Of a DNA stretch of 45,774 nucleotides, positions 3,164 to 34,849 are shown piece by piece. Under the pieces are notes generated by a model. It was not told the DNA's origin and searched no databases. It saw nothing but the letters and a program-made list of their open reading frames with translations. The position numbers and the translations under genes are program-made. The stretch's first letter is position 1. Each line of letters starts with the position of its first letter. The stretch lies in the sequence record PZ349761.1; one strand, 5' to 3'. Source of the DNA: a phage.

Positions 3164-3307
3164 CCCGCTCCTGCGGGTTTTGTTATAGTTAGTTCACACC
3201 AATCGAGAGGAAATGGAAATGAAGCAATACCCATCTAGCAATCACCATAACGGTCACATCATGCAGTTCTATCGCCACAATCTGAAGACGAAAGGAGTAT
3301 TTGGAAA

Positions 3308-4046: not shown

Positions 4047-4102
4047 ACAGTACCGGGGTAATTTGTTATAGTTACCCCATCGAAACGAACGAGGAAGAAG
4101 AA

Positions 4103-5950: not shown

Positions 5951-6028
5951 GCTCCGCTAGCTCAATTGGACAGAAGCAACGACCTTCTAAGTCGCAGGTT
6001 ACTGGTTCGAATCCAGTGCGGAGCGCCA
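5951..6028 (+). tRNA. tRNA-Arg (anticodon UCU), CCA encoded
   Basis: Cloverleaf read by eye: 7-bp acceptor GCTCCGC/GCGGAGC, T8, anticodon loop CTTCTAA with TCT at 5986-5988, T-arm ACTGG-TTCGAAT-CCAGT, discriminator G, CCA 6026-6028. Confidence 0.8.
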
Positions 6029-12101: not shown

Positions 12102-12118
12102 TAATTAAGATATATAAA

Positions 12119-12140
12119 GCCTCCTTCGGGAGGTTTTTTT
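12119..12140 (+). terminator. rho-independent terminator
   Basis: CCTCC-ttcg-GGAGG hairpin plus T7. Confidence 0.7.
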
Positions 12141-12146
12141 ATACCA

Positions 12147-12174
12147 TTGCGTGGGCTAAAAACTAGTGTATAAT
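12147..12174 (+). promoter_or_regulatory. sigma70-like promoter (TTGCGT-N16-TATAAT) for major capsid gene
   Basis: -35-like 12147-12152 and consensus -10 12169-12174. Confidence 0.55.
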
Positions 12175-12212
12175 GAACCCGTAGACACCTAACTGAAAAG
12201 GAACAATAAAGA

Positions 12213-13160: not shown

Positions 13161-13182
13161 GCCCTCTTCGGAGGGCTTTTTT
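13161..13182 (+). terminator. rho-independent terminator
   Basis: GCCCTC-ttcg-GAGGGC hairpin plus T6. Confidence 0.7.
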
Positions 13183-13246
13183 ACGTCTGTACCAAATGGA
13201 TTTGTTGAGTTATAATCACTCAATCAGATAAACAAAGGAGACAAAA

Positions 13247-14733: not shown

Positions 14734-15124
14734 ATTATCATTAGCAGCAAGGAAATTCGTCAACGATTTGTTGGTAAATGAATTTCCGGTCAGATATCCA
14801 GTTGCGTGGGAGAATGCTGCATTCACCCCTCCTGCGGATGGATCAATCTGGCTTAAGTACGACTACACGGAAGTTGATACTGTAACCTACGGATTAAGCA
14901 GGAAGTGCAAATACTACGTAGGCATGGTGCAGATTTCTGTTTTCTTCAGCCCTGGCACTGGAATTGATAGACCCAGACAAATCGCTAATCAATTGGCAGA
15001 ATCTATCGTTGATGGTACAATGCTTGACAGCGGGACCATTTATGAGTCTGGAGTTGTTAACCCGGTTATCAAATCCAAATCTGGGTGGTTTATCCCGGTT
15101 CGTTTTTATGTTCGTCTAGACTAA
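14723..15124 (+). CDS. putative tail terminator-type protein
   Basis: GTG start 9 nt after GGAGGA, overlapping upstream stop. Confidence 0.4.
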   Translation: MQYELSLAARKFVNDLLVNEFPVRYPVAWENAAFTPPADGSIWLKYDYTEVDTVTYGLSRKCKYYVGMVQISVFFSPGTGIDRPRQIANQLAESIVDGTMLDSGTIYESGVVNPVIKSKSGWFIPVRFYVRLD

Positions 15125-29406: not shown

Positions 29407-29461
29407 GACAAAATTAAAAGGTGGGGTATGATTACCCCATAAACAACGAACGAGGTTAAAG

Positions 29462-30152: not shown

Positions 30153-30581
30153 ATGCACGTAATTACTGGTCAGATTCGCCGCGCTCCATTCACTAAAGAA
30201 GGTCAAAACGCAAATGGTAACTGGAAAATGTTTGCAGTTGATTTGAGCGAGCGATACAAGGATAAAGATGGGCAATCACAGTACACAAACTATCGAGCAG
30301 TCTTCTTCGCTAAAGAGTCAATGCTAGATTGGTACAATGAGGCATTTCAAGAAGGTAAAGTTGTTAGCGTTAGCGCAGAGACTCTTTCTGTTGATGTTAG
30401 GGATAAAGATGGCAAGACTTACGTTACTGTCAACATGAACAATCCTAGACTTGAGTTTAGTCAGCGCGGTGAAGGTGGCGTGCAGCAGCAGAATCAACAG
30501 AAGCCACAACAACAGCAACAACAACAGCAACAGCAACAACCGAAGCAACAACAGAACTTTGAGGATGACATCCCGTTCTGA
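30153..30581 (+). CDS. ssb: single-stranded DNA-binding protein
   Basis: OB-fold-sized N-domain, Gln/Pro-rich linker and acidic C-terminal tail ending DDIPF. Confidence 0.85.
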   Translation: MHVITGQIRRAPFTKEGQNANGNWKMFAVDLSERYKDKDGQSQYTNYRAVFFAKESMLDWYNEAFQEGKVVSVSAETLSVDVRDKDGKTYVTVNMNNPRLEFSQRGEGGVQQQNQQKPQQQQQQQQQQQPKQQQNFEDDIPF

Positions 30582-30592
30582 TATAAAAGATA

Positions 30593-30615
30593 AGGCCCCT
30601 TTCGGGGCCTTTTTT
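30593..30615. terminator. bidirectional rho-independent terminator between SSB and tail fibre genes
   Basis: AGGCCCC-tttc-GGGGCCT hairpin plus T6. Confidence 0.7.
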
Positions 30616-30616
30616 A

Positions 30617-33199
30617 TTAACCTATTTTAGTGTAAGTCCATTGGTATGTTGCAGCTCCCTTGGCAGTTATCCCGACAGCTCTTCCACTTACATCCATTGA
30701 AGTGAAAGCGCCAGTTTTTGTAATTGTTATTGATGATGTGGAACCATCAAAAAGTACGTCAGCAATTACACTATAGTTAGGTCCAGCACCAGTAACCCAG
30801 GTCGAAACCTTGTATAAACCAGCGTTGTTTGGCAACTCAAAAAGACCAGTTGAAACATTCGCCTGAACAGCCATCGCGCCCTTTCCGGTGTACACACCGT
30901 CAGTTTTAAGACCTAATGATGAATATGTTTGCTTATAGCCACCAATGATGGCACCACCCATAGGTTCAGTAAACCAGTTCACATTACCCTGACTAACAAC
31001 AGATATCGCTGGAGACCCCCCTTTAGCTGACTGAAACCTACCGCTTAAAATGTCAATTCTAGATGCTGAATCCTGGGCGTAGATAGTTACAGGATACCCA
31101 CCAGAACCAGTGTAAACCAAGCCGTTATCATTAATGTCATCTTCAGACGAGTCAATGATTACATGGGAAGTTCCAGACGCCTTGATGAACGAAACAACAC
31201 CGCTAGAACCAGCACCTGTTGTTCTAACTTCATTCTTCCATGATGTTAGGCCTGAAATTCTGCCATTTGAGTTATTAAACCTAATCAGGCAACAATCTTG
31301 CGATCCGTTGGTGTCAATAATGTTACCTTCAACGTCCATCCCTAGTATGTTTACGCTATGGCTGTTGATGAAGTTAATCCCAGCACCACCGTAAGAACCA
31401 GATGTTGATGATATATTACTGGCATCCATTGCGCAGTTAATCATTGTAACGCTCATTACCGAACCAAATTCATAAGGTGAAATGCAATCTGATGCGTAAC
31501 AAGTCTCAAGCAATATTGTCGTTCCCGTCGCCTTTATGAATCCAGTCCTGCAATTCCTGGCCCAAACATTCTGTAGCTTAGTCTGGTATGTTCCAGTGGT
31601 GTCCGTGTAGCAACCCCATGCTCCATGGACTGTGCAATCTTTGATACATGAATTTTCTAGCCCTGTTGCAGAACCAACATTAGAAACGAAGTTAAATGCT
31701 ATCTTTTGATCATTCCCTGATGCTGAGGTAGGTGTAGTGCCTGGGTTATAAAAAATGTAAAGTCCCTCAATAAACACTTGATACATTCTTATGTTTTGCG
31801 CATCACCCTGAACCAGGGCGAATAGGTTTATGTTCCCATCAACTGAGATAAATGTTTGCGCCCTGTTAATTTGGTTTGTTCCCTCGCCAATAATTCTTGT
31901 ACTGTTGCCAATCCTCACCGTCCTGTTAATGAACATAAAACCTTTTGGTATGTATACAGTTTTACCGGTATTAACTGCCGCCTGAAGCGCAACTGCGTCA
32001 AGTGACTCGTTAAGGTTTGATGCAAATGGATAAACAAACCGCGCATCCTCAATTGTCGAGAATTTAGATGAAAGAGGAACTAAAGTACCATTGTTTGTAG
32101 CACCAAAATCCATGACGTTAACAAAGTCACCAAGTTTACTATCCTTACTCCTTTCTACAAATGAGGCCAATGTAGATTTGTAATTCATCGAACTGAATTG
32201 TGATTGAGCCTCTATCTTTGAATAAACATCTGATCTTGGGTAAACCTCTGATTTTGAATAAACATCAAGCAAACCCCTAGCTCTTTCAGCAGTAGCGCCG
32301 CCAACCGACTTCCCGCCTTCAACCATAATGTATTCGCGTAAGTAGAAGTTTCTTGATCCTTTAGCGCCCGCCATCCTGAGGTGAGTAGCCCTATATGATG
32401 AATCAGAATTCAATGCCGGATATATATCAATCTCATAAGAGCCTTGAGCTCCACTTGTGCCCCTAACACATATAAAAAGCGTAGCGTTGGCTGTAGTGTA
32501 TGTCGCAGCTAGTGATGCTGGAACGTTTGTCATGTTAGATACTACAACTCGATAATTACCACCACTTTTAAATTCAACTTGCTGCCAATCCAATGATGGC
32601 ATAGCTATTGTCGATGTGCTTGCGATACCCTCATTGGCTAGAGTAACCAAAGTTGCAGCATCACCAGCGTTGGCAATGACATTAACTGTGTTGTTGTATG
32701 CCTCCTGCGCACTACTTGCGCTTGATTCAGCCTGAGCCTTGCTTGTAGCGGCAGCTTGCTGGCTGGCAGATGCAGCCGATTCGCTTGAAGCCGCATTTGT
32801 TTCGCTTGCCTTCGCCTCATCAACTAATCGTTGTAACTTATCGAAATCAAAATCACCAGATTCAGCCAACTCAACAAGTGACGCAACCTCAGTTTCACGT
32901 GACTGATAGTAACGAAGAGTTTCCGCAACATCCTGAGCTAGCCCCTGAACGGTAATTCCATCATGCGCAAGGATAGCGTAACCAGTTCCAGCAGGAACAG
33001 TTTCGGAGTTAGGGTTGTAAACATTAATCTGCGTATCGCTGATAATTTCTGAGATGGTGTAAATCTGTACTGGTTCAGTTTTAAATACAATGGTTGCACC
33101 TACGCGAATCAGTGTAAGAGGTGCTTTCCATGTTGTCCCGACGCCAGTCACCTCACCACTTGCTGCTAGAGAAGCTGTTCCTGAGTCATAAATTGCCAT
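30617..33199 (-). CDS. lateral tail fibre / tailspike with predicted right-handed beta-helix
   Basis: About 860 aa; Ala/Ser-rich N-terminal linker, long Gly/Asn/Thr/Ser-rich repetitive region; start set to ATG 33199 with RBS GGAG (track start is GTG 33229). Confidence 0.65.
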   Translation of the reverse strand: MAIYDSGTASLAASGEVTGVGTTWKAPLTLIRVGATIVFKTEPVQIYTISEIISDTQINVYNPNSETVPAGTGYAILAHDGITVQGLAQDVAETLRYYQSRETEVASLVELAESGDFDFDKLQRLVDEAKASETNAASSESAASASQQAAATSKAQAESSASSAQEAYNNTVNVIANAGDAATLVTLANEGIASTSTIAMPSLDWQQVEFKSGGNYRVVVSNMTNVPASLAATYTTANATLFICVRGTSGAQGSYEIDIYPALNSDSSYRATHLRMAGAKGSRNFYLREYIMVEGGKSVGGATAERARGLLDVYSKSEVYPRSDVYSKIEAQSQFSSMNYKSTLASFVERSKDSKLGDFVNVMDFGATNNGTLVPLSSKFSTIEDARFVYPFASNLNESLDAVALQAAVNTGKTVYIPKGFMFINRTVRIGNSTRIIGEGTNQINRAQTFISVDGNINLFALVQGDAQNIRMYQVFIEGLYIFYNPGTTPTSASGNDQKIAFNFVSNVGSATGLENSCIKDCTVHGAWGCYTDTTGTYQTKLQNVWARNCRTGFIKATGTTILLETCYASDCISPYEFGSVMSVTMINCAMDASNISSTSGSYGGAGINFINSHSVNILGMDVEGNIIDTNGSQDCCLIRFNNSNGRISGLTSWKNEVRTTGAGSSGVVSFIKASGTSHVIIDSSEDDINDNGLVYTGSGGYPVTIYAQDSASRIDILSGRFQSAKGGSPAISVVSQGNVNWFTEPMGGAIIGGYKQTYSSLGLKTDGVYTGKGAMAVQANVSTGLFELPNNAGLYKVSTWVTGAGPNYSVIADVLFDGSTSSITITKTGAFTSMDVSGRAVGITAKGAATYQWTYTKIG

Positions 33200-33222
33200 T
33201 GTGTAGAGTCTCCATTTGTAAA

Positions 33223-33240
33223 ATAGCACGAATTGCTAAA
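33223..33240 (+). promoter_or_regulatory. conserved palindromic box ATAGCACgaattGCTAAA with no plus-strand gene downstream
   Basis: Lies about 24 nt upstream of the minus-strand tail fibre ATG and lacks the downstream -10 and leader. Confidence 0.5.
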
Positions 33241-33264
33241 GTGGATTGTAGCATCTTTGAGTCA

Positions 33265-33287
33265 TAAAAAAACCTCCCGAAGGAGGT
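33265..33287 (-). terminator. rho-independent terminator of the minus-strand primase operon
   Basis: Minus strand reads CCTCC-ttcg-GGAGG followed by T7. Confidence 0.65.
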
Positions 33288-34213
33288 TAGTCTAGTAATT
33301 CGCTCGCCTTGTATATTCGCTTTCTTATTCCTGATTTGAAGTGGTTATCATTATTTGGCATTACAACATCAAGATTGCGATCGTCAGCAACGGCGAGTAA
33401 ATCAAAATCGCTGCGAGTACAAGCGATGCGTAACTTGTAGTTTCTAAGCGCGTAAGCAACCATTTCCATGTTGTAACTGGAGTGGCAAACAAGCACACAG
33501 CGGTTCCCAGTAGCAATGTGAACGCGATAGCCATCAATGAAATTATCGACCAGATAAGCGTACTCATCATCCTTAAAGGAACCAATAACAGAAACAGACT
33601 GGCGAGTATAATCTTTTGCAGCATAACTAACATCTCCCTCTTCATTGATAAACATTACGTTGCACATCTCTTCTGATATGCCGTCACTATAAGCCATAAA
33701 GCACGGAACTGCGTGGATTAATTCACCTGATTTCGTCCTGCCAACATCAAAACCGAACTCGCTATAGATACCCTCGTATGTACTGAGAGGAGTTGATTCT
33801 ACTCTTTCCGTCCTTTCCATTATCTCTAAGCATCTTTCGTGATCAATCTGAGCGCCCATTTTGTATGGTGATGTTCTTGAAGCTCTTTTGTTTGCTTTTG
33901 ATATAACCTCTACTGGAACGAGATTCAGCCAATCACCAAGCGTATCTATTGTTTCACTATAACTCATTCCAGAACACTTCATTACCCAACCAACACCAGA
34001 ATCATTTCCACACTGGTTGCATATTGCTGCGCCATTTCCCTTTTCTTGACCTAACTCATCAGTGAAGCGAAACCTATCCTTGCCAAAGCAGTAAGGGCAC
34101 GGACCATGCTTCTTGTTGAGATTCTCCTTTGTCCATCCCAGGTGCGACGAGTAGAAAGCACTCCACATTCCCTTCATTTTTGCTATCACTTCATTTTTAT
34201 CATGGTGACTCAT
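33287..34213 (-). CDS. putative DNA primase (zinc-binding plus Toprim-like)
   Basis: CPYCFGKDRFRF...CNQCG zinc-ribbon-like N-terminus; start set to ATG 34213 with RBS GGAGG; adjacent to helicase. Confidence 0.5.
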   Translation of the reverse strand: MSHHDKNEVIAKMKGMWSAFYSSHLGWTKENLNKKHGPCPYCFGKDRFRFTDELGQEKGNGAAICNQCGNDSGVGWVMKCSGMSYSETIDTLGDWLNLVPVEVISKANKRASRTSPYKMGAQIDHERCLEIMERTERVESTPLSTYEGIYSEFGFDVGRTKSGELIHAVPCFMAYSDGISEEMCNVMFINEEGDVSYAAKDYTRQSVSVIGSFKDDEYAYLVDNFIDGYRVHIATGNRCVLVCHSSYNMEMVAYALRNYKLRIACTRSDFDLLAVADDRNLDVVMPNNDNHFKSGIRKRIYKASELLD

Positions 34214-34268
34214 AGTTACCTCCGCAAACAATAAAGGCACTATACATAATGCACAGTGCCATTGTTTA

Positions 34269-34748
34269 TCAAATCGTGCTGTTTTTCTCTTTCTTCTTCT
34301 GGTTCTCTAATTTAATTTTGCGCCAGGAGCGACATTCAGGCTTTGTGGCTAGTTCAGCCTCAGTAACTACGCGCAGCATGTGACGTTTTTTGCAACGAAG
34401 CGTCAATGGCTTTCCGTTACCGTCGAATTGCAGGTCTGGCCTGCAGAATGTAGCGCGAAAACCTTCTCCATTTCGCTTATAGTAGTTGTGCGAAAGTTGA
34501 GCTCCACGTGCAGAAATCATACCACGCTTAAACCATTCCTCTACAGCCTGTGGCGTTACCTTTAACTGCTTCGCTATATTCGCCTTTGTGCCGAAGAAAT
34601 CAAGAACCATCTCCAGCCGTGCTCGTAAGCCAGCCCTTACTTCATCTTTTAATACGTAGTAGCCTGAAGGTCGTTTACGTTGTTTTTTGTCTTTGGTGCG
34701 GACGGTTCCGTTATTACCGTTAATTGTTCGTTTGTCGACTGAACTCAT
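34269..34748 (-). CDS. putative HTH DNA-binding protein (transcriptional regulator candidate)
   Basis: Basic N-terminus, helix-turn-helix-like IAKQLKVTPQAVEEWFKRG; first gene of minus operon at a divergent control region. Confidence 0.5.
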   Translation of the reverse strand: MSSVDKRTINGNNGTVRTKDKKQRKRPSGYYVLKDEVRAGLRARLEMVLDFFGTKANIAKQLKVTPQAVEEWFKRGMISARGAQLSHNYYKRNGEGFRATFCRPDLQFDGNGKPLTLRCKKRHMLRVVTEAELATKPECRSWRKIKLENQKKKEKNSTI

Positions 34749-34760
34749 TTGATCACCTCA

Positions 34761-34778
34761 ATAGCATTTTTTGTTAAA
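34761..34778 (+). promoter_or_regulatory. conserved box variant ATAGCATtttttGTTAAA in divergent control region
   Basis: Between divergent HTH gene and helicase gene; leader CTCAATTAAACGC; ATG 34850. Confidence 0.5.
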
Positions 34779-34849
34779 AGTCATCCTTATTTGATGGTAG
34801 TATTGTACTCAATTAAACGCTACAAGACAATTTTTATAGGAATTTAGAT

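Follow-up and report, generated by a model that had tools for sequence, protein, structure and literature searches.

An inverted copy of a family-wide repeat at a predicted extended −10 promoter of the tail fibre gene in a T1-like coliphage

The 45,774-nt stretch of DNA analysed here as a whole (sequence record PZ349761.1; hereafter the window) belongs to a T1-like coliphage of the Drexlerviridae (Braunvirinae) and carries, just upstream of its minus-strand lateral tail fibre gene, an inverted copy of a short repeat, here called the box, whose other copies in the window all have a −10-like hexamer and a conserved A/C-rich leader downstream (cassettes). We located a likely promoter of the fibre gene between the box and the preceding terminator, and give about an even chance to the reading that the fibre copy is an operator for a box-binding factor that would activate the cassette promoters and block the fibre promoter. 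This fits with the conservation of the copy in both major clades of the family, with sequence variation restricted to positions at which forward boxes also vary, and with an operator position at an extended −10 promoter. A sequence-only reading of the same DNA had suggested that one factor, binding through a palindromic core, could control the fibre gene unlike the cassette-driven genes; this fits the conservation, the sequence variation and the operator geometry, while the palindrome proved to be only partial.

Read on the minus strand, the region consists of the primase stop codon, a terminator, 15 nt, TGcTACAAT, CCACTT, the box core TAGCAATTCGTGCTA (33238-33224), TTTTACAAAT, GGAG, 10 nt and the fibre ATG. 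The copy reported on the plus strand was found in place as the exact 18-mer ATAGCACGAATTGCTAAA, which recurs exactly in six further window copies and in the direct repeats (DR) DR2, DR5, DR13 and DR15 of phage TLS, and 23 nt (33200-33222) separate it from the start codon, in line with the approximately 24 nt first given. When up to three mismatches to the 18-mer were allowed, the window contained 14 copies against 0.09 expected, a number reached by 0 of 100 shuffled sequences, and the slightly longer segment 33221-33241 (aaATAGCACGAATTGCTAAAg) fits the TLS DR consensus (aaATAGCACnnnTTGnTAAAA). The dyad core, TAGCA-N5-TGCTA at 33224-33238, amounts to only 5+5 bp and belongs to the 'GAA' subtype; in other subtypes the arms mismatch, and the family consensus (ATAGCACnnnTTGnTAAA) is asymmetric.

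The promoter TGcTACAAT between terminator and box had been overlooked in the sequence-only reading, and it is its location that makes the geometry of the box interpretable. It has TGn directly upstream of TAnnnT, as in extended −10 promoters, and no −35 element, with the terminator T-run lying upstream; a −35/−10 consensus scan did not list it, which is what the lack of a −35 would lead one to expect. From the usual 7-nt distance we infer that the fibre transcript starts at approximately 33238/33237, so that the box core would occupy +1 to +15 with its centre at +8 in the window, +2 to +16 in T1 and +7 to +21 in the Henu7 group. Given this predicted start, the site overlaps the region from −10 to +20, a position suited to a steric operator. 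The terminator of the upstream regulator-primase operon (−10.5 kcal/mol, with 3 of 200 shuffled sequences folding equally well) is also annotated in the related phage SU57. Because this strong terminator is followed by a dedicated promoter, transcripts starting upstream of that terminator are probably not the principal source of fibre expression. The SU57 paper doubted that the tail-spike gene is transcribed, given the terminator preceding it, a doubt that on paper would be resolved by the predicted extended −10 promoter.

Promoters of structural genes standing directly after terminator T-runs were observed at three places in the window (12110-12190, 13170-13235 and 33245-33290), with the recurrent start TTTTTTTAT(A/G)CC, and likewise in T1, in TLS and at the fibre loci of other phages. 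These units correspond to the 'transcripton' modules proposed for T1, and the T-run may act as an upstream promoter element.

The box family as such is already known. The re-annotation of TLS, published in 2024, described 21 copies of the above consensus, oriented with transcription and approximately 76 nt upstream of start codons, as 21-nt direct repeats (DR1-DR18) occurring in T1-like phages, with 'similar repeats' in T1, Rtp and Rogue1; their function was given as unknown, and stoperators, enhancer sites or UP elements were suggested (PMC11447400). Our literature searches (box sequence, T1-like transcriptomes, Rogue1 promoters) returned nothing on the box beyond that paper, and none of the papers found describes the fibre copy or its promoter context and conservation, or the parallel at the regulator gene treated below. 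Boxes were counted in five genomes at up to two mismatches to ATAGCACNNNTTGNTAAA, and a TAnnnT hexamer was found at 19-21 nt for 18 of 19 boxes in the window, 19 of 20 in Rtp, 18 of 23 in T1, 18 of 20 in TLS and 19 of 24 in Henu7. A profile of 79 cassettes from these genomes, all with a box-to-(−10) spacing of exactly 20 nt, places the box at −50 to −33, centred at −41.5, followed by a −10 of the form TATaaT (with G at −14 in 61 and TG in 34 of the 79 cassettes) and A at +1; at the −35 hexamer position the profile holds no information. By analogy, this layout suggests the geometry of a class II activator-dependent promoter.

The fibre copy departs from this pattern. It is the sole box lacking a −10 at 19-21 nt both in the window (1 of 19) and in Rtp (1 of 20), and its centre lies at the predicted +8, against −41.5 for the 18 others. 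As had been claimed, neither a −10 nor a leader follows on its own strand: there is no TAnnnT at plus-strand offsets 19-21 (offset 20 reads GTCATA and offset 22 CATAAA), the conserved leader (cCAtcgAAACgaaa...) with its Shine-Dalgarno (SD) sequence and ATG is absent, and the strand continues into the primase terminator hairpin and then runs antisense to the 3' end of the primase gene. Nor is the copy oriented with local transcription at the TLS distance of approximately 76 nt from a start codon, lying as it does on the plus strand within a minus-strand gene block and close to the ATG. Its inverted context, singled out in the sequence-only reading, is genuine but not the only case, as the plus-strand box at 34761-34778 also lies 12 nt upstream of the regulator ATG.

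Other interpretations of the box were considered and rejected. TTGCTA (TTGnTA) within it is not a true −35, since in every cassette 22 bp separate it from the −10 and nothing like a −10 was found 17 bp downstream of it, and a resemblance to sigma54 promoters (GCAC...TTGC) fails on a spacing 2 nt too short and the lack of GG. A plus-strand promoter running antisense to the primase gene from the orphan box was dismissed for want of a TAnnnT at 19-21 nt (window, Rtp and T1) and of a leader, and a palindromic box driving a minus-strand −10 located 20 nt nearer the gene was dismissed because the ACAATG found there overlaps the start codon.

As a separate observation on the cassettes, the 20-nt spacer often pairs with sequence just past the −10 (e.g. 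4047-4081, 29407-29440 and 34236-34260), which puts the −10 in the loop or the 3' arm of a hairpin (GGGGTAAtttgtTATAGTTACCCC, AAGGCCAtttgaTATAGTGGCCTT); the same was seen in T1 (L017) and TLS (L016), and the arm sequences vary from cassette to cassette. The mean longest stem was 4.95 bp compared to 3.85 ± 0.10 for permuted partners (0 of 500 permutations reached it), and stems of at least 6 bp occurred in 25 of 73 cassettes. The −10 lies inside a full terminator in some cassettes (TLS 35240-, T1 35995-, window 34260-34236), and in others a terminator is contained wholly within the spacer (window 3164-3183).

The region upstream of the fibre gene was compared across 83 places, comprising SU57, JeanPiccard, the window and 80 IMG/VR loci collected via alignment of the N-terminal domain, which yielded 74 distinct IMG/VR and GenBank sequences. 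The inverted box was present in 30 of these, with the recurrent order terminator, TGnTAnnnT, 6-7 or 12 nt, inverted box and SD. TGnTAnnnT stands just upstream of the core in 28 of the 30; the gap is 6-7 nt in 21, including L039 (TATAAT without TG), and 12 nt in 8, a Henu7-like group. The gap varies in sequence (CCACTT, GCGCTT, TTATTT, CATTGCT) with its length kept, and since the two gap classes lie approximately half a helical turn apart, steric hindrance fits better than a phased contact. At the T1 fibre gene the promoter reads TTGCAA-17-TAAAAT, followed by 7 nt and the box. An alignment of 14 lineages showed the terminator T-run, the T/A/T of the −10, the box (TTA.CAA...GTGCTA) and a few SD-proximal positions to be invariant and the TG of TGn to be nearly so, with the remaining columns diverged; between lineages (including Rtp, T1 and Henu7) the flanks are unalignable and the arrangement is retained. 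Box bearers belong to Braunvirinae (window, SU57, JeanPiccard, Rtp), Tunavirinae (T1) and Tempevirinae (Henu7), which cover both major clades of the family according to the BASEL paper (PMC8594841). The box is missing from the fibre genes of TLS, which has a canonical TTGCAT-17-CATAAT promoter, of L030-L032, in which TGATACAAT is kept, and of the many Webervirus-like Klebsiella phages, in which TGCTATTAT precedes a fibre gene located after ssb and co-oriented with it. A dedicated, terminator-adjacent and mostly extended −10 fibre promoter thus appears near universal in these sequences, with the downstream box as a widespread, dispensable add-on.

In the Webervirus-like IMG/VR loci (L041-L094), the arrangement terminator-TTCATTGATGCTATTAT-CTGCGTTACTCAACCAAC was observed approximately 60 nt upstream of the fibre ATG. 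Here the extended −10 resembles the 3' half of the inverted box and is accompanied by a cassette-type leader, with no full box.

Substitutions among the fibre copies are limited to the central triplet and one arm position (TAGCA/TATCA/TAACA), which is the very position that is free in forward boxes (TTGnTA, in reverse TAnCA), and they break the potential stem without compensation. Since the substitutions match free forward-box positions and are not compensatory, recognition of the site as duplex DNA by a protein is indicated, rather than an RNA stem, by a constraint that resembles the one on forward boxes. In agreement with this, the predicted fibre 5' untranslated region (UTR) was less structured than shuffled sequences (z = +1.6), giving no support for structure in the leader RNA, and an Rfam scan of the window returned tRNA-Arg only.

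A candidate for the box-binding factor is encoded upstream of the fibre gene, beyond the primase gene: a Cro-like helix-turn-helix (HTH) 'transcriptional regulator' of 159 aa. It matches phrog_2856 (E 1e-82) and, below the curated cut-off of 30.2 bits, Pfam P22_Cro (E 3e-6, 27.4 bits), and a PDB sequence search gave only a marginal Cro match (E 0.79). Its position next to primase is conserved in T1, TLS, Rtp and Henu7, and its homologues were found in T1-like phages only (825 records), the box being present in all five genomes examined. The box at the divergent helicase cassette, which in forward orientation serves the helicase promoter as its −41.5 element, ends 1 nt before the regulator SD, and a predicted regulator promoter, TTGTCT-17-TACAAT (34830->34802), would fire through it. 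In the window, Rtp, T1 and TLS alike, a box is found 10-12 nt from the regulator ATG and downstream of the gene's own sigma70 promoter, and in TLS the published P57 promoter lies upstream of DR11 (PMC11447400, Table S1). The layout looks like the classic autoregulatory arrangement of an activator or repressor gene, and it is for this reason that we regard the Cro-like protein as the leading candidate, a choice resting on gene context and this autoregulation-like layout only. As an additional observation, the helicase −10 (TAGTAT, plus strand) and the regulator −10 (TACAAT, minus strand) overlap by 2 bp (34798-34807), and the two promoters should therefore be mutually exclusive, forming a compact switch beside a shared box.

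Nearly all boxes of T1, TLS and Henu7 that stand outside cassettes overlap, or closely follow, the sigma70-type promoter of a late structural gene, in either orientation. At T1 terS a forward box overlaps TGgTAAAAT; at the major head gene of all three phages an inverted box forms the spacer and the TGcTATTAT of a TTGACG promoter; at J, again in all three, a forward box lies approximately 14 nt past the −10 and overlaps the SD; and the fibre genes of T1 and Henu7 have an inverted box at a sigma70-type promoter. The mixed orientation of these promoter-downstream boxes argues for an orientation-independent steric effect. The remaining non-cassette copies are T1 120-, Henu7 28382+ (after TerL) and Henu7 34442+; the last of these falls within a gene and probably matches by chance.

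Some further features of these late loci were observed. The head promoter, TTGACGc-TTTAACAAAAAGTGC-TATTAT, was found at 15060-15120 in T1 (L017), 15015-15070 in TLS (L016) and approximately 32600-32697 in Henu7 (L099), in each case with a terminator-like hairpin directly after it in the leader, a promoter-site-terminator layout that recalls lambda PR'/qbe/tR'; the capsid promoter of the window (12150-12190) has no box and lacks this layout. The box of the tail-tip gene J is a forward variant, ATAGCACAAAAAGGTAAA, located 4-17 nt upstream of the ATG after TATAAT or TACAAT (T1, L017, 25021-25038; TLS, L016, 24908-24925; Henu7, L099, 42604-42621); it is conserved in three genera, and its AAGG doubles as the SD in T1 and TLS.

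Taken as an operator, the fibre copy would work as follows. The fibre gene would be transcribed from its own host-sigma70 extended −10 promoter (33253-33245, minus strand) right after the primase terminator, and the inverted box would act as an operator on the first approximately 15 transcribed bp. Its ligand would probably be a phage-encoded dimeric DNA-binding protein, for which the product of 34269-34748 is the best candidate. Bound at −41.5 of the approximately 18 cassette promoters without a −35, this factor would supply the missing −35 contact and switch the promoters on, and bound at +1 to +15 of the fibre promoter it would occlude RNA polymerase or block promoter escape. Fibre expression would then run in anti-phase to, or be damped relative to, that of the cassette genes, and the regulator's own gene would be controlled in the same way. 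The sequences establish the elements, their spacing and their conservation, whereas we infer the transcription start, the existence and identity of the factor and the sign of its regulation.

A wider version, which we regard as doubtful though possible, is that one box-binding protein, perhaps the Cro-like HTH protein, runs the whole Drexlerviridae programme. It would be the obligatory activator at −41.5 of some 18-20 cassette promoters without a −35, and would repress the few promoters served by host sigma70 only: in Braunvirinae those of the fibre gene and its own gene, and in T1-like phages also those of major head and J, to which T1 adds terS. Replication would multiply the approximately 20 sites per genome and titrate the factor, so that the structural promoters would be released late; copy number would serve as the timer, with no need for a phage sigma factor or RNA polymerase.

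Several points weigh against the operator reading. The box is dispensable, as the fibre promoters of TLS, the Webervirus-like phages and L030-L032 do without it, and conservation within the close Braunvirinae group extends beyond the box to the whole 5' UTR. The predicted recognition helix of the regulator differs between phages (TPQAVEEW in the window, SNQTVQGW in T1 and NLKTVWGW in TLS) with a nearly identical box. Cassettes also precede some late or structural genes of the window (8727, 15830), so that a simple rule of early cassettes and late operators fails, and the literature searches found no box-binding factor, transcription start or expression data for any member of the Drexlerviridae. 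The first two of these points, the absence being without obvious replacement, would also suit a box that is functionless at the fibre gene, either as the relic of a decayed or inverted cassette or as a conserved homology arm carried along with the fibre N-terminus in frequent module exchange. The fibre locus is a recombination hot spot, where conservation is restricted to the 5' end of the gene and the region upstream (PMC8594841 and the SU57 paper). We nevertheless consider a functionless box unlikely: lineages whose flanks cannot be aligned still share the box and its spacing from the −10, the box subtype varies (CGAAT, CGATT, CTAAT, CGTTT, CTTTT) with the same invariant positions as in functional forward boxes, and the regulator gene, as well as late genes in T1, TLS and Henu7, shows the same layout.

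Alternatively, the box could belong to the core transcription machinery, the motif TGcTATTTT (33228-33220) being a second promoter (P2) or a sigma70-dependent pause element for polymerases starting at the upstream promoter (P1). This motif retains −12T, −11A, −7T and the TG; in the head genes of T1 and TLS the inverted box supplies the spacer and extended −10 of a near-consensus promoter, TTGACG-16-TGcTATTAT, and TGCTATTAT is used by the Webervirus-like fibre promoters. Against this, the hexamer is conserved only within the close Braunvirinae group and is replaced in other box-bearing lineages (by TATTTA in T1 and in group C, by TAAACA in L023, by TATCAA in L025 and by TATTAA in L045), it is the upstream TGnTAnnnT that is nearly universal, and a P2 transcript would start at or inside the SD; we consider such a role quite unlikely. 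A box-bound protein acting positively or on elongation, whether at a Q-like polymerase loading site or as a barrier to read-through of the primase operon that spares P1, would find a parallel in the head promoters of T1, TLS and Henu7, where the inverted box is followed by a terminator-like hairpin as in lambda PR'-qbe-tR', and in the occurrence of promoter-downstream boxes in both orientations. In the window, however, no terminator lies between box and fibre ATG, the 5' UTR is less structured than its shuffles, and gap classes half a turn apart are unfavourable for a specific contact with polymerase; we hold this to be very unlikely. The smallest probability goes to a role at the RNA level, as a 5'-terminal hairpin stabilizing the fibre mRNA or as a trans antisense control beside the SD, through 18-21 nt able to pair with forward-box sequence in the 3' UTRs of many further phage transcripts. 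If P1 is real, the box would form the first approximately 15 nt of the mRNA, in which a G-type copy like that of the window folds into a 5-bp hairpin (−3.8 kcal/mol), and the six other exact window copies would yield complementary RNA where transcripts from upstream run into them. Yet this hairpin is weak and is abolished without compensation (0 kcal/mol) in Henu7-type or group C copies (UAACA...UGCUA) and in L024, no forward box in the Henu7 genome exactly matches its fibre subtype (CGTTTTGTTAAT), which weakens the trans-antisense idea, and the T1 promoter-downstream boxes occur in both orientations.

The operator reading can be placed beside known systems. CRP and FNR at −41.5, and lambda CI at OR2 for PRM, are class II activators that repress when their site overlaps the start. 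The forward boxes are similarly dyad-like, centred at −41.5 of promoters without a −35, and the fibre copy overlaps the predicted +1; unlike these systems, the box is unrelated in sequence to CRP, FNR and CI sites and only quasi-palindromic, and its factor is itself putative. The phi29 protein p4 activates the late promoter A3 and represses the early promoters A2b and A2c from differently placed sites, which resembles the opposite outcomes by site position, and the temporal switch, proposed here for one phage protein; the direction is probably reversed in our case (most genes being activated and a structural one repressed), the site architecture is different, and there is no evidence of homology. 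The stoperators of mycobacteriophage L5, the sites of gp71, are asymmetric and have one orientation relative to transcription. Like the boxes they are short and present in many copies per genome, some of them in transcribed leaders, where bound protein would block polymerase; unlike them, most boxes stand at a fixed spacing upstream of a −10 and are thus promoter elements, and boxes downstream of promoters occur in forward orientation at terS and J of T1 and in inverted orientation at the head and fibre genes. A lambda Q-type arrangement is likewise not seen at the fibre gene, with no hairpin or terminator between box and ATG and an unstructured leader. The analogy to stoperators was suggested by the TLS authors (PMC11447400). 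The fibre copy belongs to the same sequence family as the TLS repeats, which are also multi-copy, intergenic and divided into G, T and A subtypes by the central triplet, and differs from them in being inverted, close to the ATG and downstream of a promoter; inverted promoter-downstream copies are not discussed in the TLS paper, although its DR7 is one (PMC11447400).

The fibre gene itself had been described as encoding approximately 860 aa on the minus strand, and this agrees with the ATG preceded by an SD, whose A lies at 33199; the listed open reading frame (30617..33229) begins at an upstream GTG. The protein matches PHROG tail-fibre families. Residues 1-198 correspond to the virion-anchor domain of Klebsiella Webervirus depolymerases (7lzj, 7vyv; E ~1e-41 in a PDB sequence search), with N-terminal homologues in 901 phage records, and residues 355-448 match the LKA1 and phi297 tailspikes (4ru4/4ru5, E 1e-12); a match to Pfam PF12708 was weak (E 0.004, below the cut-off). 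The structure prediction proposed for the C-terminus was run and gave a right-handed beta-helix tailspike fold: the AlphaFold2 (AF2) model of the C-terminal 528 aa (mean predicted local distance difference test score, pLDDT, 88.2) shows a parallel beta-helix followed by a beta-sandwich, and Foldseek against the PDB retrieved phi297 gp61 (E 4.5e-11), LKA1 gp49, Sf6 TSP and CBA120 TSP2, the best matches being tailspikes that cleave O-antigen or capsule. The C-terminal approximately 520 aa are thus modelled as a right-handed beta-helix receptor-binding or depolymerase module, the protein sharing its anchor or its beta-helix fold with Depo32/DpK2 (7vyv/7lzj), LKA1 gp49 (4ru4) and the Sf6 tailspike. 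In E. coli prophages and metagenome-assembled contigs, the same module (52-61% identity) follows P22-type head-binding domains and TSP1-type N-termini, a pattern of sharing typical of exchangeable O-antigen-specific tailspikes. The glycan target, which was to be read from the fold, could not be inferred; the closest modules are those of uncharacterized E. coli prophage tailspikes. The close relative SU57 makes haloed plaques; these haloes, together with the module shared with tailspikes of E. coli P22-like prophages, support a glycan-cleaving activity of the fibre only indirectly.

The wider region (30400-33600) is 98.7% identical to Veterinaerplatzvirus T145P1 genomes and approximately 91% identical, over 77-79% of its length, to JeanPiccard and vB_EcoD_SU57 (both Drexlerviridae, Braunvirinae). 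Gene order is standard for the family: recE-erf-ssb on the plus strand converge with the fibre gene on the minus strand, beyond which lie primase and the Cro-like regulator (minus strand) and then the divergent helicase gene. The 3' end of ssb (30470-30560) was observed to carry a long glutamine-rich CAA/CAG repeat (QQQNQQKPQQQQQQQQQQQPKQQQN) ahead of the canonical acidic tail DDIPF. A tRNA-Arg (anticodon TCT; 5951-6028) is the sole match in the window from Rfam and ARAGORN. The coordinates of the main features are collected in Table 1.

Table 1 Features of the fibre and regulator loci in the window.
Feature	Position	Strand	Remarks
Lateral tail fibre/tailspike gene	30617..33199	-	860 aa + stop
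Bidirectional terminator	30592..30611	.	Common to the convergent ssb and fibre genes; -16 and -16.8 kcal/mol
Shine-Dalgarno GGAG	33210..33213	-	10 nt upstream of ATG; G-rich block conserved (14-lineage alignment A3)
Second extended -10-like motif TGcTATTTT	33220..33228	-	Inverted box plus flank; possible weak P2 or sigma70 pause element
Orphan inverted family box	33223..33240	+	Exact 18-mer
Predicted fibre promoter P1, extended -10 TGcTACAAT	33245..33253	-	Hexamer 33250->33245
Intrinsic terminator of the regulator-primase operon	33264..33288	-	7-bp stem (33288-33271), UUCG loop, U7
Cro-like HTH 'transcriptional regulator', 159 aa	34269..34748	-	Leading candidate box-binding factor
Helicase-cassette box	34761..34778	+	-10 TAGTAT at 34798-34803; also in the divergent regulator 5' UTR

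T1 is one of the original T phages, and genome papers on T1-like phages list only a handful of sigma70 promoters. To our knowledge, these phages encode neither an RNA polymerase nor a sigma factor of their own. The present analysis identifies a likely promoter of the fibre gene, describes the family-wide repeat as a promoter element of fixed geometry centred at −41.5, and points to a few copies at positions from which the same factor would be expected to act negatively. For a repeat to which no function had been assigned, this provides a two-state model that can be tested and that names a candidate protein; mechanistically, if true, the model would make the box an ordinary position-dependent activator/repressor site. 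For engineering, fibre swaps aimed at retargeting host range should keep, or deliberately remove, the control region 33223-33253.

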